A stretch of DNA of 64,000 nucleotides from Clostridia bacterium. Its GTDB lineage: Bacteria > Bacillota > Peptococcia > Peptococcales > BICA1-8. The stretch is from positions 465 through 64,464 of the forward strand of contig JAAXZE010000007.1 of NCBI GenBank assembly GCA_012720075.1, in the 5' to 3' direction. Shown piece after piece: positions 1,725-63,533 of this stretch; within the stretch, counting starts at the first letter, position 1; each line of letters begins with the position of its first letter. The notes beneath the pieces were generated by a model that did no database searches, had not been told where the DNA came from, and saw nothing but the letters and a program-made list of their open reading frames with translations. The translations under genes were made by a program, and so were the position numbers.

Positions 1725-2829
1725 ATGGATTTTGAAATTAATCGGGAATTGGAAATAGCTGCCAAGCGTGTTAAAGATTTGAGGGATTCACTTTGACCTG
1801 CCTAGTAAATTAAGGCAGATTGAAGAATTGGAGCATAAAGTGGGTCTTCCTGATTTTTGGGATGACCCTGAAAAGGCCCAAAAAACTATGCAGGAGCTTA
1901 CAAAATTAAAGGATAAGGTGGAACAAATCAACAGGTTGGAGCGAAAGCTGGAGGATATAGAAGTTCTTTACCAATTAGGAAGGGAAGAAGGGGAGGAGGT
2001 AGTTGCCTCTGAAATTACTGAGGAACTTGAGGAATTAAACAATCTTTTGGAAAAAATGGAGTTAGAGACTCTCCTTAATGGTAAATATGATCGAAACAAT
2101 GCCATTTTAACTTTACATCCCGGAGCCGGAGGTACAGAGTCCCAGGATTGGACGGAGATGCTATATCGGATGTATACCCGGTGGGCTGAAAGTAAAGGCT
2201 ATCGGGTGGAAGTTTTGGACTATCTTCCGGGTGATGAAGCCGGTATAAAAAGCGTAACCATCTCTATTGAAGGAGAAAATGCTTACGGTTATCTGAAAGC
2301 CGAATAAGGGGTTCATCGATTAGTTAGGATTTCGTCCTTTGATGCTTCAGGTAGGAGACATACGTCTTTTTCGGCTGTGGAAGTTATGCCGGAAGTCAAT
2401 GACGAAACAACTATTGAAATTGACCCCAAGGATTTAAAAGTTGACACCTATCGTTCCAGTGGTGCCGGCGGACAGCATGTCAATAAGACCAGTTCGGCGG
2501 TTCGGATTACCCATATTCCCACAGGAATCGTTGTTCAATGTCAAAACGAACGGTCCCAGATAAGCAATCGGGCTACGGCAATGAAAATTTTGCGTTCCAA
2601 ACTGCTGGAATTACAAATGAAGGAAAAGGAAAAAGAATTGGCCCAACTTAAAGGAGAACAGCAGGAAATAGGCTGGGGCAGCCAGATTCGTTCCTATGTA
2701 TTCCATCCCTACAGTTTGGTTAAAGACCATCGTACCGGAGTGGAAAAGGGCAATGTCCATGCCGTTATGGACGGAGATTTAGATGATTTTATTACCGGAT
2801 ATTTAAAAATGCAGGCCTCTCAACAATGA
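1725..2829 (+). CDS. prfB: Peptide chain release factor 2 with the programmed +1 frameshift, but interrupted by an in-frame TAA (2305-2307). A pipeline would call this a pseudogene.
   Basis: ATG 1725 follows a GAGGTG SD. 22 codons are followed by CTT TGA C (1791-1797). The +1 frame then joins listed ORFs 1828..2307 and 2377..2829, which share one frame. GGQ motif [11 protein letters not shown] is present. TAA replaces the Lys of the conserved YLKAEKGVHRLVR, and ISSFD sits where RF2 has SPFD. Confidence 0.85.
1782..1797 (+). promoter_or_regulatory. prfB autoregulatory +1 frameshift site (SD-like AGGGA, then CTT TGA C)
   Basis: Sequence AGG GAT TCA CTT TGA C. The zero frame stops at TGA 1794-1796, and the +1 frame (GAC from 1795) is open and encodes RF2. 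Confidence 0.9.
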
Positions 2830-3067: not shown

Positions 3068-3712
3068 TCAGTAAGCCGTTAATGGTATGTTACACAGTTC
3101 CACATGATATCGGCTGACTTTTTTCACGTATTTTTGGGGCAAGGATAAATCCTGGCGCAGTTTATTATCCACATAAGTTTCGCCGGCATTATAAGCGACA
3201 AGGACTTTTTCTAAATGGCCGTCGTAACGGTTGAGCAAACGTTTAAGAATATAGGTTCCCATTTGAATATTGGTATCGATATTAAATAGTTCTTCCCTGT
3301 TTTGGGGAGGATTTATGCCCATAAGCTTGGCCCAGTAGGGGGCATATTTATAGCGAATTTGCATAAGACCTGTATCATCAAGGGTACCTTTGCATAAGGG
3401 TTTAAATTGGCTTTCAGCGGCAATAACCGAAATAATCAGATTTTCCGGTACGTTGTACAAGGCGCTATATTTTTCAATGGCAGCAGCAATCAACTCAAAA
3501 GTTTCATCATCTAATTCGGGGTTTAATCTTTTTACCAAGGTCACAAATTCTTCATCGGACAAAAGTTTTGGTGGCTGCTTTTTGGGTGTCGGCTCGTGTT
3601 TGGGTAAGTGTAAGCTGTCATCGGCAACACCTTGGCTCGAACACCCGATGGAAGTAACCGCCAAAAGCAGCGATACCCCCACTGCCAAGGCCTTGCGTCT
3701 TTTTTTACACAT
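3068..3712 (-). CDS. Lytic transglycosylase (SLT domain) lipoprotein
   Basis: Lipobox LLLAVTSIGCSS. SLT catalytic region AAESQFKP..GLMQI..YNAG. ATG at 3712 lies 8 nt after a GGAGG SD; the listed ORF begins 2 codons earlier at a TTG. Confidence 0.85.
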   Translation of the reverse strand: MCKKRRKALAVGVSLLLAVTSIGCSSQGVADDSLHLPKHEPTPKKQPPKLLSDEEFVTLVKRLNPELDDETFELIAAAIEKYSALYNVPENLIISVIAAESQFKPLCKGTLDDTGLMQIRYKYAPYWAKLMGINPPQNREELFNIDTNIQMGTYILKRLLNRYDGHLEKVLVAYNAGETYVDNKLRQDLSLPQKYVKKVSRYHVELCNIPLTAY

Positions 3713-14914: not shown

Positions 14915-16320
14915 CTAAATCCTGTATTTACCCAAAGTTCGGTCTCCTTTAACCACATGGACGGCGCAAGAAAAACAAGGGTCAAAGGAGCGAATTACCC
15001 GCCCCACTTCAATCAGGCTGTCCATATTATTTATCGGTGTACCTATTAATGCTTTTTCTACAGGACCAGGGTTATCTTTACCGTCCCTGGGGGAGAAATT
15101 CCAGGCGCTGGGAGTTACTACCTGGTAATGGGCAATCCGGCCGTTTTTTATTTTTACCCAATGGCCTAAAGGCCCCCGCATGGAATCAATTAATCCTGTA
15201 CCTTCGGTCTCAGACAAAGGTTCATATTTTTTTAGTGAACCTTGGTTTATGTTTAGGTCTTCCAGCCAGGTAAACATGCCTTTTACAATTTCCCTTAGCT
15301 CTAGAGCCCGGGCAATGTTCCGGTCATTGACAGATACTCCCCTTCGATATATACCGTTAATCCAGAGACGGGCCAAGGGCCCTCCCTCAAATGGCTTATC
15401 CTGATAACGGGGGGCTTTAATCCAGGAATAAGCTCCCGGTTTTTGGTCGTCGGGGATGGTTTTTTCCTCATATGGATGACGGCCTGTATCCACTTCTTGA
15501 TAAAAGGAATTTGTTACTTCTTCGGTTATAAGTTTTGGCTCAATGCTTTTAGCTTCCTGAGAAAAATTTTCCGCAAAACCCGGTTTAAGCAAAGGTGATT
15601 TGTTATCGGTCAGGGGAAACATGCCATAGGTTATTAGGTTGCCGTAACCTTTGCCGATTTCATAATAATCGGGGTAATATTGGGCTACTGTATAGACGTC
15701 AGGAATATATTTTTCTTCCACAAAGGTTTGGATTTCTTTAAGGATGGAGAAAAACATATTTATTTTTTCAGCATTAGGTTTTTCCGCTATTCCGCCGGGC
15801 AAAATGGTTTGCTGATGGGGGCTTTGGCTCCCCAGATGGCCACCAACTGGTGGGCCTTGGCGCTTAAATGGATGGCAAGCCAGTAATTTTCGAACAGTGT
15901 TTTTTCAATATTGGGAGGAATTCGATAATCACCGGGCATTAACGGACGAAAAGGCGATGTTTCCGGACCCCGGGCATAATCGGGTAAAGTCAAGATATAA
16001 AACTGGCGCAGATGATTCTGGATAAAATCCGCCCCTACTATCAGGTTGCGAAGGAGGTAACCGTTATGGGCCGGGCTTATCCGGTATGCATCTTCTAAAG
16101 CTAAGGTACTGGCAAGGGCATGGGCAGTGGAACAAATACCGCATATTCTCTGAGAATAAAGGGGAGCATCCAAGGGGTGACGGTTTTCAAGCATTAGTTC
16201 AAATCCCCGGAATAAAGGGCTGTTAACCCAGGCATCGGTAATCACACCGTTATATACTTCTACTTCAACTTCCAAAGGTTCGTGGATTCTGGTTAGAGGA
16301 AAAACCTTTTTTTTCACCAC
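14915..16320 (-). pseudogene. [NiFe] hydrogenase large subunit, split by a 1-nt frameshift in a C5 (plus-strand G5) run at 15817-15821
   Basis: ORF 15787..16320 carries the N-terminal ligand motif RICGICSTAH. ORF 14915..15802 carries the C-terminal DPCFSCAVH plus a cleavable tail. The conserved GAKAPHQQTILPGG is recovered only by shifting -1 after GCC CCC. Confidence 0.8.
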
Positions 16321-17970: not shown

Positions 17971-19953
17971 ATGACAGACAAGTTTAAATTGGTATCTGAT
18001 TTCAGGCCCCGGGGCGATCAGCCCAAAGCCATTGCCCAATTGGTGGACGGATTATATAGAGGCTTGCCCAAGCAAACCCTTTTAGGTGTAACAGGTTCGG
18101 GCAAAACTTATACTATGGCCAATGTCATTGCTGAGGTTAACCGGCCTACCCTGGTAATTGCCCATAATAAGACTTTGGCGGCTCAGCTTTGCAGTGAGTT
18201 CAAGGAATTTTTCCCTGAAAACGCCGTGGAGTATTTTGTCAGCTATTATGACTATTACCAGCCGGAGGCATACATTCCCTATACCGATACTTATATTGAA
18301 AAGGATGCGCAAATTAATGAAGAAATTGAAAAGTTGAGACACTCGGCTACCTCGGCTCTTTTTGAAAGACGGGATGTAATTATTGTGGCCAGTGTTTCTT
18401 GCATATATGGTTTAGGTTCCCCCGAGGATTATAAAAACCAAACCTTATCCCTTAGGGTAGGGCAGGAATACGATAGGGATAAGATTTTAAGAAAACTGGT
18501 GGATATTCAATATGAACGGAATGACGTTAACTTTGTGAGGGGTACTTTCCGGGTGAGGGGCGATGTCATCGAGGTATTGCCGGCTTCGCTGACGGAAAAG
18601 GCTTTAAGAATTGAAATGTTTGGCGATGAGATAGAGCGGATTTTGGAGATTGATACAGTTACCGGCGAGATAATAGGTCAGCGCCAACATGTAAGTATTT
18701 TCCCGGCAACCCATTATATTACCGCTCCTGAATATTTAGAAACCGCTATCCAAAATATCGAAAAGGAATTGGAAGAAAGTCTTCAGGAACTGCGCAGCCA
18801 GAATAAGCTCCTGGAGGCCCAAAGGCTGGAACAGAGGACCCGTTATGACCTGGAAATGATCCGAGAGGTAGGTTTTTGTACCGGGATAGAAAACTATTCC
18901 CGCCATTTAACGGGAAGAAAACCGGGGGAACCCCCCTATACTCTTTTGGACTATTTTCCTGAGGATTATTTGATAATGATTGATGAATCCCATGTTACCA
19001 TTCCACAAATAGGCGGGATGTATGAAGGAGACCGGTCCCGCAAAACCAATTTGGTAGAGTACGGTTTTAGGCTGCCCTCGGCCTTGGATAACAGACCTTT
19101 AAAATTCCATGAATTCGAAGAAAAAATCGGGCAGACAATTTTTGTTTCCGCAACTCCCGGTCCTTATGAGCTAAAACACAGCAGCCAGATTGTGGAACAA
19201 ATTATCAGGCCTACCGGTTTGGTTGACCCTGAAGTAGAGGTTAGACCGGTCAAAGGTCAGATTGATGACCTCTTTGACGAAATAAAGAACAGAGTGGAAC
19301 GGGGCGAAAGGGTGCTTATTACTACCCTTACTAAAAAAATGGCTGAGGACCTGACTGATTATTTTAAAGAGGCCGGTCTTAAGGTTCGCTATCTTCACTC
19401 AGAAATAAAAACCATTGAAAGAATGGAAATTTTAAGAGATTTGCGCCTGGGCGTTTTTGATGTTTTAGTAGGAATAAACCTATTGCGGGAAGGGTTGGAT
19501 TTACCGGAGGTCTCCTTGGTGGCTATTTTGGATGCCGATAAAGAAGGCTTTCTCCGCTCGGACCGTTCATTAATCCAGACTATCGGTCGGGCTGCCCGAA
19601 ATGTTAACGGCAAGGTTATCATGTATGCCGATAAAATCACCGGCTCCATGGAGCGAGCCATCAATGAGACTAACCGGAGGCGAGCTTTACAAATAGCTTT
19701 TAATAAGGAGCATAATATTACTCCCCAATCCGTTAAAAAATCGGTGCGGGATATTATCGAAGCCACTAAAGTGGCTGAAAAAGAACCTGAATATAAGCTA
19801 TCCCAGCAAAATGTGGATAAGATGTCTAAGGATCAATTAAAGAAAATGATCAAGGATCTGGAAAAGGAAATGCAGGAAGCGGCCCGGGCTTTGGAATTCG
19901 AACGAGCCGCTTTGATCAGGGATTTGATTATCGAACTCAAAGGGAAACTATAG
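17971..19953 (+). CDS. uvrB: Excinuclease ABC subunit B
   Basis: [12 protein letters not shown], helicase motifs and a C-terminal UVR domain ([11 protein letters not shown]). Confidence 0.97.
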
Positions 19954-20299: not shown

Positions 20300-23128
20300 A
20301 TGGCCAAAGATAAAATCATAATCAAAGGAGCGAGGGTAAATAACCTTAAAAACATAGATATTGAAATACCCAGGGATAAATTTGTAGTAATAACCGGTCT
20401 CAGCGGCTCGGGAAAGTCTTCTTTAGCTTTTGATACCATTTATGCTGAAGGACAGCGCAGATATGTGGAATCTTTATCTGCCTATGCCCGGCAGTTTTTG
20501 GGCCAGATGGATAAGCCTGACGTTGATTATATCGAGGGCTTATCACCGGCCATATCCATTGACCAGAAAACTACCAACCGTAATCCCCGGTCAACGGTGG
20601 GCACGGTAACGGAAATCTACGATTATCTTCGGTTGTTATTTGCCCGGATTGGAGTACCCCACTGTTATAAATGCGGCACGCCCATAGCCCAGCAAACCGT
20701 CCAGCAGATGGTAGACCAACTGATGAGCTATCCTGAAAGAACCAAATTGCAGATTTTAGCGCCGGTTATCCGGGGACGAAAAGGTGAGCACAGGAAAGTA
20801 CTGGAGGATTTAAAAAAAAGCGGTTATGTGCGGGTTATGGTAAATGGAGAGTTGAGGGAATTAAGTGAAGAAATCATCTTGGATAAAAATAAAAAGCATA
20901 ACATTGAGGTGGTGGTTGACCGGGTAATTATCAAGGAAGGTGTGGAAAGCCGGTTGGCAGATTCGCTGGAAACGGCCTTAAATTTATCGGAAGGCGTAGT
21001 CAATGTGGATATTATTGACGGGGAAAGGCTGGTTTTTAGCCAGAATTTTGCCTGTGTTGACTGCGGTATCAGTTTTCCGGAGATTACCCCTCGAATGTTT
21101 TCCTTTAACAGTCCTTATGGGGCCTGCCCCGAATGTGACGGTTTAGGAACAAAACTGGAAATAGAGCCGGATTTGGTTATACCGGACTGGACTTTGTCCC
21201 TGGCTGAAGGAGCCATAGCCCCCTGGAGTAAAAATACCAACGGTTATTATCAGCAAATTTTGGCGGCGGTGGGTAAGCATTATGGTTTCAGCATGCATAC
21301 TCCTGTCGGCAAATTGCAGCCGGAACATATTCATGTTATTTTATATGGCTCCGGCAATGAAAAAATTAGAATAAAATATACCAATATGTATAATGAAACC
21401 CGGGTTTATGACTCTGTCTTTGAAGGGGTCATCCCCAATCTCTACCGGCGGTATCTGGAGACCCAGTCCGAGTTGTCTAAGGCCGAGACGGAACAGTATA
21501 TGACCAATAAACCCTGTCCCCGATGCAAAGGCGCTCGGCTGAAACCTGAGGTTTTGGCGGTAAAAATCGCCGGAAAAAATATTTCGGAAGTTACGGATAT
21601 GACGGTTTCAGAAATTAAGAATTTCTTTGATAATTTAAAGCTTACGGAGAGAGAGTTACTTATTGGCCGTCAGGTTCTGAAAGAAATTAAGGAAAGGTTG
21701 AACTTTCTGGTCACGGTAGGTTTGGATTATTTGACCTTAAGCAGGACTGCCGCTACATTGTCCGGAGGTGAAGCCCAGCGGATCAGACTGGCGACCCAGA
21801 TAGGGTCAGGGTTGGTCGGTGTTCTTTATATCCTGGACGAGCCCAGCATCGGTTTGCATCAACGGGATAATGACCGTTTGATTGAGGCTTTAAAACATTT
21901 GCGGGATATCGGCAATACTTTAATCGTTGTGGAACATGACGAAGACACTATGCTGGCCGCCGATCATATCATAGATATAGGTCCGGGGGCCGGAGCCCAT
22001 GGCGGGAAGGTAGTAGCCCAGGGTACCATCGAAGAAATCAAGGCGGTTAAAGAATCCATTACCGGCCAATATCTATCCGGTGCCAAGAAAATTCCCGTTC
22101 CGTTAATCAGGCGCCCTCCCAATGGCAAATGGATAAGGGTCAAAGGCGCCACTGAAAACAATCTGAAAAATCTGGATGTCGCTTTTCCTTTAGGGGTTTT
22201 CACCTGTGTCACCGGGGTTTCAGGTTCCGGCAAAAGTACCCTGGTCAATGAAATCCTTTATAAAGGCCTTATAAGGAAACTGTATAAAAACTCCAAAGTG
22301 GAACCCGGTCAACATATTTCCATAGAAGGTGCGGAGCACCTGGATAAAATAATCGACATAGACCAGTCCCCCATCGGCCGGACGCCCCGGTCTAATCCGG
22401 CTACCTATACATCGGTTTTTGATGCCATCAGGGAGATTTTTGCCCAAACTCCTGAGGCCCGGATGCGGGGCTATAAACCCGGTCGCTTTAGTTTTAACGT
22501 AAAAGGGGGCCGCTGTGAGGCATGCCGGGGAGATGGAATAATTAAAATTGAGATGCATTTTCTGCCTGACGTTTATGTGCCTTGTGAAGTATGTAAGGGT
22601 CAGCGCTATAATCGGGAAACCCTGGAGATTAAATATAAAGGGAAAAATATTGCCCAAGTTTTGGATATGACGGTAGATGAGGCTGTTGAATTTTTCCAAA
22701 ACCTGCCTAAAATCTATCGCAAGCTGAAAACTCTACAGGATGTGGGGTTGGGTTATATCCGCCTGGGTCAGCCGGCTACCACTTTATCGGGCGGTGAAGC
22801 CCAAAGGGTTAAGTTGGCTACCGAACTTTCTCGCCGTAGTAATGGTAAAACCCTGTATATTCTGGATGAGCCTACAACGGGCCTGCATATAGCCGATATT
22901 CATAAACTTTTGGGGGTATTGGCCCGTTTAGTTGACGCCGGAGATACGGTAGTAGTTATCGAGCATAATTTGGATGTAATAAAATGTGCCGACTATGTCA
23001 TTGATTTAGGACCGGAAGGTGGCAATAAAGGGGGACAAATCATTGCTATCGGAACACCCGAAGAGATAGCCGGTGTAGAGGAGTCTTATACGGGACAATT
23101 CTTGCGCAAAGTGCTGAGCAAGGGATGA
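20300..23128 (+). CDS. uvrA: Excinuclease ABC subunit A
   Basis: Two ABC modules ([18 protein letters not shown]; two LSGGEAQR signatures) and zinc-finger cysteines. Confidence 0.97.
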
Positions 23129-25239: not shown

Positions 25240-25392
25240 AGATTACGCCAACATTGTTGGCTATCTTACGCCTTGCTAGATTAAAGGTTGAGGTTAAGGT
25301 TAAAGGGTATTAACGTGACATCATGATACCAACCATTTCAATTTTTTTTAAGCTTTCGATGTCACGGCGTCACGGTGACACGATGTCACAAA
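25240..25392. repeat. Composite intergenic repeat, module order B(rc)-E(rc)-A(rc)
   Basis: Reverse complement is collinear with 2888-3043. Contains the palindrome GCCAACATTGTTGGC and a duplicated TTACGCC. Confidence 0.85.
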
Positions 25393-36302: not shown

Positions 36303-37484
36303 ATGAACAAAAAAACTATTAGAGATGTTGAGTTGGAGAACAAAAGGGTTTTGGTTCGGGTAGATTTCAATGTACCCAGGGATAAAGAAGGCAATGTTAC
36401 CGATGATACCAGAATTAGAGCTGCTTTGCCAACTATCAAATACCTTTTGGACCATAAAGCAAAAGTCATTTTAACTTCCCATCTTGGTCGACCCAAAGGA
36501 GAAGTGGATAATAAATACCGTCTTGACCAGGTGGCCCAAAAGCTTTCGGAGCTGTTGGGTCAAAGGGTTATTAAAACCGATACTACCGTTGGCCCCGATG
36601 CCCAAGAAGCGGTAGAAGGTTTAAAATCCGGAGATGTTTTGCTTTTGGAAAATGTCCGCTTTAATCCCGGAGAGACTAAAAATGACCCTGAATTTGCAAA
36701 AAAATTGGCGTCTTTTGCCGATTTGTATGTCAATGATGCCTTTGGGGCAGCCCATAGAGCCCACGCGTCAACGACAGGGGTAGCCCAATATCTGCCGGCG
36801 GTAGCGGGATTTTTGATGGAAAAAGAGTTAAAGGCTTTAAGCGGTGCCTTAAATAATCCTGAAAGACCCTTTGTAGCCATTATCGGCGGTGCAAAAGTAT
36901 CGGACAAGATAGGTGTTATTGAAAACCTCTTACATAAAGTTGATGCTTTGATAATCGGCGGTGGTATGGCCAATACTTTCTTAAAGGCCAAAGGTTATGA
37001 AATGGGCAAGTCTTTGGTTGAAGAAGATAAAATAGAAGTGGCGAAAAATTTAATGGATACTGCCCGCTGTAAAGGGGTTAAACTTTTGTTGCCTGTTGAT
37101 TTGGTTGTAGCCGATTCCATAGAAAACCCCGGAGAAATCAAAACAGTAGAGGCAGATGCCGTTCCTCAGGATAAAATGGCTTTAGATATTGGCCCATCTT
37201 CTGTACAATTATTCCGGGATACTATTAAGGACGCCAAAACCATTGTCTGGAACGGGCCAATGGGTGTCTTTGAAGTAGATGCTTTTAGTACGGGAACCAA
37301 TCAAATAGCCCAAGCGGTGGCCCAGTCAAATGCCAACTCCATTGTTGGCGGTGGTGATTCGGTGGCTGCCATTGAAAAAGCCGGCTTGGCGGATAAAATC
37401 AGTCATATTTCCACCGGCGGCGGGGCATCCCTGGAGTTCTTAGAAGGAAAAGAATTGCCGGGTGTAGTTGCTTTAAATGATTGA
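36303..37484 (+). CDS. pgk: Phosphoglycerate kinase
   Basis: 393 aa with [15 protein letters not shown] and GGGDS motifs. Confidence 0.97.
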
Positions 37485-37502
37485 AAATTGGAGGTAAAGA
37501 TT

Positions 37503-38258
37503 TTGCGAAAACCAATAATTGCTGCTAACTGGAAGATGCATAAAACCGTTAAGGAAGCCAATGATTTTCTGCAGGAATTTATACCTTTGGTAGAAGGGAA
37601 TAATGATGTTGACATAGTTTTGTGTGTGCCCTTTACAGTTTTAGATGCAGTTAGTAAAAAAATAGCGGACACTAATATAACTTTGGGCGCCCAAAACGTG
37701 TATTGCCAGGACAAAGGTGCCTTTACCGGAGAAGTGGCTCCTCAAATGCTTTTAGAATTTGGCACCAAGTATGTTATTATCGGCCATTCCGAAAGACGGG
37801 CTGTTTTTGGTGAAACCGATGAGCTGATTAAGGAAAAGGTTAATAAAGCCTTACAATCAGGTCTAATTCCCATCCTGTGTGTAGGTGAAACCTTGGAGGA
37901 AAGGGAGAAAGGTTTTACCGAAGCCAAATGCCGCAAACAGATCGAAGCGGTTTTTCATGGTTTGACTAAAGACCAAGCTGCCCAAATTGTTATAGCCTAT
38001 GAACCTATTTGGGCTATTGGAACAGGCAAAACCGCTTCCAGCAGTGATGCCGAACAGACCATTTCCTATATCCGCAGCCTTTTGTCCGGTATCTTTGACG
38101 AAGATACCGCTCTGAAAGTGCGAATTCAATATGGCGGAAGTGTAAAGCCGGAAAATGTGCAAGACCTTATGGCTCAACCTAATATTGACGGCGCTTTGGT
38201 GGGCGGAGCCAGCTTGGATCCGCAGTCTTTCGCAAAAATTGTAAACTACAAGGAGTAA
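37503..38258 (+). CDS. tpiA: Triosephosphate isomerase
   Basis: [12 protein letters not shown] and [14 protein letters not shown] 37503 lies 8 nt after GGAGG; the listed ORF starts 5 codons earlier. Confidence 0.95.
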
Positions 38259-39807: not shown

Positions 39808-39867
39808 GGTTAAGGTTAAGGCTAAGGTTAAGGCTAAGGTTAAGGTTAAGGCTAAGGTTAAGGTTAA
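39808..39867 (+). repeat. Hexanucleotide tandem repeat GG(T/C)TAA x10
   Basis: Ten contiguous units starting 9 nt after the gpmI stop. The unit is the reverse-complement word of repeat module B (AACCTTAACC). Confidence 0.95.
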
Positions 39868-39959
39868 GGTTTTACTTAGGTATAAAAGATATATTTTCAT
39901 TAGGTTTAGCTTTTTTGGATTATAGGTAAGCAAACATAGGGGTATAGTAAGCTAATAAA

Positions 39960-60669: not shown

Positions 60670-61131
60670 ATGGAGAATGTCAAAGTTGTCACAGAAAACC
60701 GAAAAGCTAGGCATGATTATCATATCCTTGAAACCTTTGAAGCCGGGATGGAACTAAAAGGTACGGAGGTTAAATCTCTCCGCTCCGGTAAAGCCAACTT
60801 AAAGGATAGTTATGCCCAGGTGGAAAATGGAGAAATTTTTATCTTTAACATGCACATTAGCCCCTATGAACAGGGAAACCGCTTTAATGTTGACCCATTA
60901 AGGCCCCGCAAGCTCTTAATGCATAAGAAGGAGATTTTGCGCCTCTGGGGTAAAACCAGGGAAAAAGGGCTTACTTTGATTCCGTTAAAGGTGTATTTTG
61001 TCCGGGGCAAAGCCAAAGTTGAGTAGGCACTGGCCCAGGGTAAGAAACTTTATGACAAACGGGAGGCTGCCGCAGAAAAATCAGCCAAACGGGACATCGA
61101 AAAAGCCATGAAAGAAAAAATGCGTTTTTAA
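60670..61131 (+). CDS. smpB: SsrA-binding protein SmpB, interrupted by an in-frame TAG (61024-61026)
   Basis: [29 protein letters not shown] core. After [11 protein letters not shown] the same frame continues [37 protein letters not shown], which is the conserved SmpB C-terminal tail. An alternative start is GTG 60658. Confidence 0.85.
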
Positions 61132-61195: not shown

Positions 61196-61550
61196 GGGGG
61201 TGTAATGGTTTCGACGGGGGAATTCGGTGGCTTGAGAAGCGAGTCGAGGTCGCACTGGCTCGTTAAACGTTGCACAAAAAATAAACGCTAAAAACAATAA
61301 CTTAGCTTTAGCTGCTTAATTGCAGTCTAACCTCCTACTTGCCTTTGCCTGTGGGGCGAGCAAGGGGGTCACATTAGCAGGCTACTCTTAAGTAACCGCC
61401 TTGTAGCTTAAGGGGAAACTTACAGGGCTGGCCGATGGAAATCCTGTTTGTGGGAGTTCCTGAGGCGAGATGCCAAAACACAAACTACGCTCGTAGATGC
61501 TCAGGTGGTCGATCTTCCGGACAGGGGTTCGACTCCCCTCACCTCCACCA
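61196..61550 (+). ncRNA. ssrA: tmRNA (SsrA), predicted tag reading frame GCT AAA AAC AAT AAC TTA GCT TTA GCT GCT TAA (AKNNNLALAA)
   Basis: The 5' GGGGGTG pairs with the 3' CACCTCCACCA acceptor stem, including G3:U. T-arm GGGGTTCGACTCCCC. The tag ORF ends ..LALAA-TAA. Located directly after smpB. Confidence 0.93.
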
Positions 61551-63022
61551 GCAAAGGTCACAATCGTGTCTATGTCGATTGTGTTTTCATAGACGATTAC
61601 TTTTTTAACATAAGCTTGGATGATGCGTTTTTGCTCTTCCGGGCTTTTATTTTTTATATCAGCGTCTTTTTGAAGATACTTCCGTATCATATCTTCTGTA
61701 GGTGCATGCATTTGAGCCTGTAGTTTTGCTTCCTCAAGTTTTATTGTGAGATTGGCCTTTTTAGTTTCCAACTCGTCCATTTTCTCTTTCATGGACTGAT
61801 GGAACATCCCAGCAGCTATAGCGTTCACAATATTGTTGATCTCCGTTTGCACTCCGGCCAATTGATCGGTAAACAACTTTATATCCCGATTAATCTCCTT
61901 GCTTTGAGAGGCGGCATATTCAGATATTTTCACCACCAGTCTTTCTATAGCTTCCGGGGAAAAAACATTTTCTTCAAGGTGTTTAATAACAATATTTTCC
62001 ACATAGTTTTTGTTTATCGCTTTCATATCGCAAGCCTTAGTTCTTTTCCTAGTGGAGCACTCATAACTCACATACAGGTCCTTATTTCTGCCAGCGAACT
62101 TCCTTGTCCCTGTCATGACACCACCGCATTTACCGCAGAAAATTAATCCAGATAAAAGATATATTTCTTTTGCTGAATTTGCACCCTTCTTATTCTTTTC
62201 CATACGTTTTTGCACCGCCTCCCATATTTCATCTGATATTATTCTGGGTATACCGCCCTCAATTCTGATGATTTCATCCTCGTTTTTGCTCTTGTGGTGA
62301 TTGCGCTTACCGTTAATCTTGCTGGCTGAACGATTAAATATATAAACCCCCCGGTATTTTTCGTTCTTAAGTATGTCGTGAATGCTATTTTTACCGAATG
62401 GTCTGCCGGTTTGGGTTTTATATCCTTGGCTATTTAGGACATGAATTATTTCACTGTAACCTTTTCCAGCAGCATACATTTCAAATATAGTCCGTACAAT
62501 ACGAGCTTCATGCTCATTGATTATGTACGTTTTGTCATTGGCAACATCGTATCCCAGCGGTGGCCTTCCACCAGTATGTTTGCATTGTAGGGCTGTTTCC
62601 TTCATGCCTTTCATGACTTCCCGCGCAAGGTTGCGGCTGTAATATTCGGCCATACCTTCCAAGACAGATTCCAGAATGATGCTTTCTGGACTGTCATCAA
62701 GGTGTTCAAGAACCGATATGAGACGCACGCTATTCTTTTTGAGCTGCCTTTTGTAGAAGGCTGAATCATATCTATCCCGAGAAAACCGATCTAGTTTATG
62801 CACAATCACAACGTCAAACAGGCCCAATGCGCTGTCTCGTATCATTTGAAGAAAACCAGGCCTGTCATCCGTTGTGGCTGATTTGGCTTCATCGGTATAT
62901 ATTTTTACTATTTGCATATTATTTCGATTACAATACTCTTTTATAGCCCGAAGCTGGGCTTCAATACTTTCCTCTCGCTGATTGTCACTAGAATATCTTG
63001 CGTATGCTGCAGCTTTAAACAT
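61388..63022 (-). CDS. Large serine recombinase; its last ~55 codons are antisense to the 3' part of ssrA
   Basis: Catalytic region AAAYARYSSDNQ, resolvase domain, recombinase domain, zinc ribbon CGKCGG..YECSTRKRTKAC and a coiled-coil. ATG 63022 follows GGGAGGGG. The ORF has no stop until 61388, 163 nt into the tmRNA gene. Confidence 0.85.
   Translation of the reverse strand: MFKAAAYARYSSDNQREESIEAQLRAIKEYCNRNNMQIVKIYTDEAKSATTDDRPGFLQMIRDSALGLFDVVIVHKLDRFSRDRYDSAFYKRQLKKNSVRLISVLEHLDDSPESIILESVLEGMAEYYSRNLAREVMKGMKETALQCKHTGGRPPLGYDVANDKTYIINEHEARIVRTIFEMYAAGKGYSEIIHVLNSQGYKTQTGRPFGKNSIHDILKNEKYRGVYIFNRSASKINGKRNHHKSKNEDEIIRIEGGIPRIISDEIWEAVQKRMEKNKKGANSAKEIYLLSGLIFCGKCGGVMTGTRKFAGRNKDLYVSYECSTRKRTKACDMKAINKNYVENIVIKHLEENVFSPEAIERLVVKISEYAASQSKEINRDIKLFTDQLAGVQTEINNIVNAIAAGMFHQSMKEKMDELETKKANLTIKLEEAKLQAQMHAPTEDMIRKYLQKDADIKNKSPEEQKRIIQAYVKKVIVYENTIDIDTIVTFAGGGEGSRTPVRKIDHLSIYERSLCFGISPQELPQTGFPSASPVSFPLSYKAVT
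61559..61588 (+). terminator. Probable ssrA terminator hairpin (also a candidate recombination-site dyad)
   Basis: CACAATCG-TGTCTATGT-CGATTGTG followed by TTTTC, 8 nt after the CCA end. It lies inside the antisense recombinase ORF. Confidence 0.6.
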
Positions 63023-63065
63023 GATTTTCCCCTCCCAAAACCAGAACTGATGTTCGTATACATGG

Positions 63066-63533
63066 TTAAAAAAAATTATCAATGTTTTCTATAATTCCTA
63101 ATGGATCAAAACAAATCCAGTATTCTCCCACACGGCAGTAGATGCCGTATTTTTCTTTGTAATATTTCACAGCATCACATAGAAACCTTTCTGTTACACC
63201 TAGGTACTCTGCTAGTTCGTGTTTAGTTCTGATGCCGGCTTTGTATGCTTCCACTAGCTTGTCCAAAGGAACAAGTTTCTGGTAGGCCAAGGTTCTTGCT
63301 CTACGCTCCTGCTTACGATTCTCTATTTTTGATTGGTCTAGGATATTGCCAGCAGTAGTGTAATAATGGCCGAGTTCTTCGGCGAGAACACAGCATTTCT
63401 CTGCAGTGGTCTCTAAGTTTTTGTTTAGACCAATCACCTTATCATAATACAAACCCTTTATCTTTCCTTTCAATGGAAGGTAAACAACTTCTATGCATTC
63501 CTTTTCTGCTTCAATGAGTAAGGTTTCATGCAT
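63066..63533 (-). CDS. ImmA/IrrE-like (DUF955) protein with variant EELGH motif and a C-terminal HTH-like segment
   Basis: CCVLAEELGHYYT sits where the family normally has HExxH. TKHELAEYLGVTERFL resembles an HTH. Family assignment is from memory of similar clostridial mobile-element proteins. Confidence 0.5.
   Translation of the reverse strand: MHETLLIEAEKECIEVVYLPLKGKIKGLYYDKVIGLNKNLETTAEKCCVLAEELGHYYTTAGNILDQSKIENRKQERRARTLAYQKLVPLDKLVEAYKAGIRTKHELAEYLGVTERFLCDAVKYYKEKYGIYCRVGEYWICFDPLGIIENIDNFF

Follow-up and report, generated by a model that had tools for sequence, protein, structure and literature searches.

An in-frame stop codon and an altered SPF motif in prfB of a Clostridia bacterium assembly, and their probable origin as consensus errors

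Results

The prfB locus

The window analyzed here, a stretch of 64,000 nucleotides from a Clostridia bacterium contig, carries a prfB gene on the forward strand (positions 1725-2829), directly after secA. Direct reading of the sequence revealed a frame-0 leader (1725-1796) that begins with an ATG at 1725 and runs to an in-frame TGA at 1794-1796. This TGA lies inside the sequence CTT TGA C (1791-1797, forward strand), the programmed +1 frameshift site that is a normal autoregulatory feature of RF2 genes. The +1 frame (1795-2829) was recognized from its translation and its match to TIGR00020 as the RF2 body, and ends with a TGA at 2827-2829. The initial annotation of this DNA had described the frameshift site as normal, and so it proved: three other assemblies of the species (contigs L081-L083, described below) are identical to the window at this site, and the same early split of the reading frame is present in a close relative, L001. 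The N-terminus of prfB aligns with RF2 proteins from relatives whose gene lacks a frameshift, for example L005 (MDYETHKAFEEAKETLKDLSESLD...). In several gut Peptococcaceae MAGs (L005-L010, L015, and L019), RF2 is encoded in one continuous frame and the programmed frameshift is absent; these RF2 proteins have GVHRMVR, not GVHRLVR, before SPF.

Two anomalies were found in the +1 frame, both on the forward strand. An A-to-T change at position 2305 creates an in-frame TAA (2305-2307), and a C-to-T change at 2335 leads to SSF (TCG TCC TTT, 2332-2340) in place of SPF, the stop-codon recognition motif. Both features had been reported earlier, and direct reading confirmed them, except that a check list had, by a minor slip, given 2326 as the altered base of the SSF motif. 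As had also been stated, the downstream half of the gene is intact and in frame, and includes the GGQ peptidyl-tRNA hydrolysis motif (GGC GGA CAG, 2467-2475, forward strand; GAGGQHVNK).

When a lysine was substituted at the stop, the resulting protein scored 550.7 bits against the TIGR00020 prfB HMM (cut-off 370), and RF1 models applied to the same Lys-repaired protein fell below their own cut-offs. Three hallmarks of RF2 are present, namely the HMM score, the CTT TGA C site after a short leader, and GGQ; the SPF tripeptide and a frame uninterrupted apart from the programmed shift are missing. Judged by its sequence, prfB of the window is a member of the RF2 family, yet is defective as written.

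The gene is flanked by two copies of an intergenic repeat of ~36 bases, built of GTGACA/TGTCAC units (consensus GTGACATCGTGTCACCGTGACGCCGTGACATCGAAA). The window contains three copies in total (1511-1546, 2889-2924, and, on the minus strand, 25354-25389), and the 13-base core of the repeat was never encountered in shuffled sequence. The repeat could be a candidate operator or a REP-like element.

prfB in related genomes

A scan with one genome per species yielded 80 related loci with 58-85% amino-acid identity. The loci came mostly from Peptococcales and Peptococcaceae MAGs, and the window's own genome is absent from the set. The position occupied by the TAA is a sense codon in all 80 loci, nearly always one for Lys, in line with the earlier claim that the TAA replaces a Lys of other RF2 proteins. 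The claim that SPF is conserved was likewise borne out, since the motif is SPF in 79 of the 80 loci and SPY in the remaining one. The SPY was observed near position 6185 of L069, in RF2 of a related Bacillota MAG (RUI589), and reflects either natural variation or an error in that assembly as well.

prfB in other assemblies of the same species

Two RF2 proteins, P0001 (Logan) and P0020 (JGI), are the same as the RF2 of the window except for a K at the stop and a P in the motif. The contigs behind these proteins, L081 (SRR31940690, 4.8 kb), L082 (SRR25434704, 2.6 kb), and L083 (JGI 3300012949, 1.8 kb), align with the window without gaps and with 99.7-99.9% DNA identity. All three independent assemblies have AAA (Lys) at 2305-2307 and CCC (Pro) at 2335-2337. 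The initial annotation had listed a base-call or assembly error among the possible explanations, and had pointed out that AAA and CCN in sister genomes would indicate one; the AAA and CCC found in assemblies this close to the window support that option. Both the TAA and the SSF are private to the window assembly, and the independent assemblies agree among themselves against it (three of them at 2305 and 2335, and four at position 61025 in smpB). At position 3287, in the neighbouring lytic transglycosylase gene, L081-L083 have an A and the window has a synonymous T.

The possibility that the window itself had been altered relative to the public record was rejected, as each of the 16 full-length ORFs with a usable start that were looked up was exactly identical to an NCBI protein. 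The matching entries (NLT940xx, locus tags GXW85) belong to a metagenome-assembled genome (MAG) named 'Clostridia bacterium', on a contig of 66,381 bases, and the proteins of this MAG include the odd SecA, UvrA, and UvrB variants described below. A protein search found no NCBI protein for RF2 at this identity, which fits a gene annotated as a pseudogene. Truncated RF2 and SmpB fragments, with the start sites that were tried, were absent from a collection of 15 billion proteins in which the intact versions are present. A search of metagenome_contigs with the exact DNA pattern of positions 2291-2346 (N at the two variable sites) gave no match; this collection evidently does not hold the short contig L083, and the empty result therefore says nothing on allele frequencies.

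Other lesions in the same contig

Inspection of the in-frame sequence beyond each stop codon in the window revealed further lesions. An in-frame TAG is present at 61024-61026 of smpB (60670-61131, forward strand) and removes the C-terminal tail. The codon is TTG (Leu) in four other assemblies, in four contigs from four samples, and an intact 153-amino acid SmpB with Leu at the TAG site is present in both JGI and Logan data. The gene for the large subunit of [NiFe] hydrogenase (14915-16320, minus strand) contains a putative frameshift at a run of five C residues (15817-15821), which breaks it into fragments of 177 and 295 amino acids. Addition of one C at 15817-15821 produces a 468-amino acid protein that matches PF00374. 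Neither the repaired large subunit nor the hydrogenase small subunit nor the transketolase N-terminal subunit had an exact match in protein look-up.

Private missense changes were found in several other genes, all on the forward strand. The SecA codon at 67-69 is CCC (Pro) as a result of an A-to-C change, which gives LAPITFQN instead of LATITFQN; the codon is ACC (Thr) in L081, the only other assembly that covers it. The position belongs to a motif (LA[T]ITFQNYFR) that is strongly conserved in SecA, with Thr or Ser as the residue there. UvrB carries R270S (AGT at 18778-18780, a G-to-T change) and M386I (ATC at 19126-19128, a G-to-C change), and the corresponding residues are Arg and Met in contig L090 and in three sister-species proteins. 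The UvrB cluster mates, like those of pyrophosphatase and CggR, belong to a sister species with about 91-93% amino-acid identity and were used as an outgroup only. UvrA carries K127T (ACG at 20678-20680); L090 has Lys at this position and the closest solved UvrA has Arg. Comparison of the uvrB-uvrA region, which was picked regardless of lesions, with L090 (5.66 kb) revealed three differences, and all of them are non-synonymous transversions.

Downstream of smpB, a tmRNA gene (61196-61550) encodes the tag AKNNNLALAA. Next come a large serine recombinase ORF (61388-63082, minus strand), which as delimited overlaps the 3' end of the tmRNA gene, and a gene for an ImmA/IrrE-type M78 peptidase (63066-63533, minus strand). 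Beyond the tmRNA 3' end, contig L086 has a different sequence with pyruvate formate-lyase genes. This arrangement suggests that an element has integrated at ssrA in some strains but not in others.

One of the other assemblies, JGI 3300012949, has private lesions of its own. In L083, a GAA to TAA change is present in prfB at position 491 (window 2050), and in L086 the stop of the tmRNA tag is changed from TAA to TCA (window 61318). These lesions could be taken for repeated damage to the termination and rescue machinery, but noise like that of the window assembly is the simpler and probable explanation. Among the private coding changes of JGI 3300012949, as seen at the loci to which this inspection was confined, one of six is nonsense once the ascertained stops are set aside, which is unremarkable.

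Spectrum, rate, and clustering of differences

One or more independent assemblies cover about 26 kb of the window. Contigs L081-L084 and L090-L092 come from essentially the same strain as the window, and L085, L089, and L093 come from more diverged strains, 0.2-0.3% from the window. The differences from the latter three comprise 1 non-synonymous change to 18 synonymous ones, and 11 transitions to 10 transversions. By these ratios, the between-strain differences look like normal polymorphism. An intergenic stretch upstream of the enolase gene (39862-39955) is heavily diverged, including indels, relative to the Logan contig L089, and the enolase protein is identical. This stretch may be a boundary of recombination or replacement.

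A second set of differences was compiled on the side of the window, from its differences with same-strain contigs and from the sites where several assemblies agree against it. This set consists of 12 differences, of which 8 are non-synonymous or stop changes, 2 are synonymous, and 2 are non-coding; three of the 12 (20679, 25045, and 25047) rest on one comparator and could be errors of the other assembly. Transversions outnumber transitions 11 to 1. The ratio of non-synonymous to synonymous changes is different in the window-side and the between-strain sets (Fisher p = 8.6e-5), and remains so when the three sites that had prompted the search are removed (p = 1.8e-3); the prfB and smpB regions were picked for their stops, and statistics that include them are biased. 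The ratio of transitions to transversions is also different (Fisher p = 0.022). If substitutions hit the genes of the window at random, about 73% of them would be missense, 22% synonymous, and 4.6% nonsense (6.1% for transversions alone). Given their 8:2 non-synonymous bias and their blindness to codon position, the window-side differences behave like unselected noise.

The rate of such differences was estimated from regions that had not been chosen for a lesion, where 7 were found in 15,694 bases. This corresponds to 0.045%, or about 29 per 64 kb, a rate at which one or two nonsense codons would be predicted for the whole window; two, in prfB and smpB, were seen. The differences are also clustered. 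Gaps of 2, 30, 89, 156, and 348 bases separate some of them, and five of the eight gaps are 350 bases or less (p about 0.012). Clustering on the scale of a sequencing fragment is what one would see if stretches of the consensus derived from a single poor or duplicated molecule.

Two mutational sources were considered and rejected. A single mutator signature of the MutT or MutY type does not match the data, which include transversions of every class. The clustered changes in prfB are not adenine-specific and therefore do not fit targeted adenine mutagenesis by a diversity-generating retroelement.

Stop codon usage in the window

A simple census of ORFs of at least 90 amino acids in the window gave 53 ORFs, 31 of which end with TAA, 13 with TAG, and 9 with TGA. 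The statement of the initial annotation that TGA is a genuine stop holds, as the nine include uvrA, pgk, an esterase gene, and prfB. Beyond the TGA of pgk, the frame stays open into tpiA (37482-37510), and readthrough would give a PGK-TIM fusion. A natural PGK-TIM fusion is known in Thermotoga.

Discussion

The in-frame TAA and the SSF motif of prfB are real in the deposited sequence and, judging from the comparison of assemblies, almost certainly not a property of the species. Both changes are private, changes of the same class are present elsewhere on the contig, and this class, as seen in the aligned sequences, is blind to codon position and consists almost entirely of transversions. From this pattern we infer, with a probability of about 85%, that the TAA and the SSF are selection-blind consensus errors of a noisy MAG. 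The prfB gene of the organism would then be ordinary, i.e., a single RF2 gene with a CTT TGA C +1 frameshift site, SPF, and GGQ. About thirty single-base consensus errors would be present in the 64 kb, among them the TAA at 2305 and the Pro-to-Ser change at 2335, each a product of unselected single-molecule noise that reached the consensus. That the TAA and the Pro-to-Ser change fell 30 bases apart in an essential gene would be a matter of chance, and they would have no effect in the cell, where the codons would be AAA and CCC. The errors presumably go back to sequencing, library preparation, or the assembly step, with patches of low coverage or duplicated fragments as possible sources.

Two observations run counter to this reading. 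Contigs of 66 kb usually come with decent coverage, and a rate of 0.045% would then be unusually high for a short-read assembler. The nonsense codon that L083 has in its own prfB can, in turn, be read as a sign of recurrent prfB inactivation.

The strongest competing explanation is that the strain truly has a broken prfB, either because it belongs to a recent dead-end or mutator lineage or because the gene is a pseudogene backed by a second RF2 gene. Two damaging changes only 30 bases apart in prfB, and a different prfB nonsense codon in another assembly of the species (L083), would be in keeping with such a null allele. Nevertheless, we consider it unlikely. With TGA at the end of 17% of ORFs (9 of 53), RF2 is needed, and outside the two sites the RF2 protein matches the intact allele (P0001 and P0020) at 100% of residues, with no sign of decay. 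A null allele would, moreover, require that the smpB, secA, uvrA, and uvrB lesions on the same contig be real too, which is implausible for a viable cell, and the changes span every transversion class with no single mutator signature. As private changes in smpB, secA, uvrB, and uvrA are equally damaging, the decaying copy that the initial annotation had proposed is not needed to account for prfB. An NCBI protein annotated as RF2 of 'Clostridia bacterium' (P0017, 85% identity) was considered as a second copy and rejected; it is the orthologue from a different MAG, L013, in which prfB is flanked by secA and transketolase genes, as in the window.

An extended form of this explanation takes the prfB (TAA and SSF) and smpB (TAG) null alleles as real and, together with the lesions of JGI 3300012949, as a sign that populations repeatedly tolerate or select the loss of RF2 and of trans-translation. 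This appears very improbable. If it were true, a Peptococcales-like anaerobe would need some unknown way of terminating at UGA.

Programmed recoding, in which the TAA would be read through or suppressed to yield full-length RF2 and the SSF would alter stop specificity as an extra regulatory layer, has even less to recommend it. In its favour, recoding at the TGA already controls RF2 synthesis, and the downstream half of prfB is intact and in frame. Against this, the stop is absent from all three same-species assemblies and all 80 related genomes, TAA serves as a genuine stop in more ORFs of the window than any other codon (31 of 53), and there is no tRNA gene within the window. Published work describes SPF as indispensable to RF2 for the recognition of stop codons and reports that termination is lost in an SPT variant (PMC6881298). 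The context of the stop, TAA-G, is not leaky, and the folding of the 105 bases at 2296-2400 is no stronger than that of shuffled sequence (z = -0.43). Stop-codon readthrough had been one of the options raised at the outset; with a stop that is unconserved even within the species, in such a context and with no unusual structure downstream, it is unsupported. The least credible proposal, that RF2 is being lost en route to a changed code in which TGA is no longer a stop, draws on the broken prfB typical of UGA-reassigning lineages, and is dismissed in view of the intact prfB in same-species assemblies, the intact frameshift cassette, which depends on TGA as a stop, and the TGA codons that end uvrA, pgk, and prfB, with the alignment of uvrA to a solved UvrA reaching within two residues of its stop. 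A changed code would also leave in-frame TGA codons at conserved Trp or Gly positions, and none came to light in a general survey of the window.

If the changes are indeed consensus errors, the case is mainly a cautionary one. A broken RF2 in a genome that uses TGA would be remarkable, and the combination invites ideas of readthrough or of a change in the genetic code, but it vanishes when independent assemblies of the same species are consulted. The contrast used here, between private differences dominated by non-synonymous changes and by transversions and natural polymorphism that is synonymous, provides a reusable test for consensus noise in MAGs. Any pseudogene, stop-codon, or motif-variant call from the GXW85 assembly is suspect, including the smpB stop and the hydrogenase frameshift.

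Lineages that reassigned UGA, the Mycoplasmatales and the SR1 and Gracilibacteria, show broken or lost prfB. The prfB of the window resembles theirs in being non-functional as written, and differs in that TGA is a regular stop in the window and the species has an intact prfB. Canonical prfB (RF2, TIGR00020) is a much fuller match, as the HMM score, the frameshift cassette, GGQ, the domain order, and the secA-prfB neighbourhood are as in relatives; the TAA break and the SSF are found in the window assembly only, and elsewhere the same species is fully canonical. The third known system is that of error-made pseudogenes in draft and MAG genomes. The case presented here departs from it in that its cause is read from the pattern and in that substitutions outnumber indels (the same-strain contigs align without gaps, and there is one putative homopolymer frameshift elsewhere). 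It shares with such pseudogenes private, single-base, selection-blind, and transversion-rich changes that affect several essential genes and lie in fragment-scale clusters.
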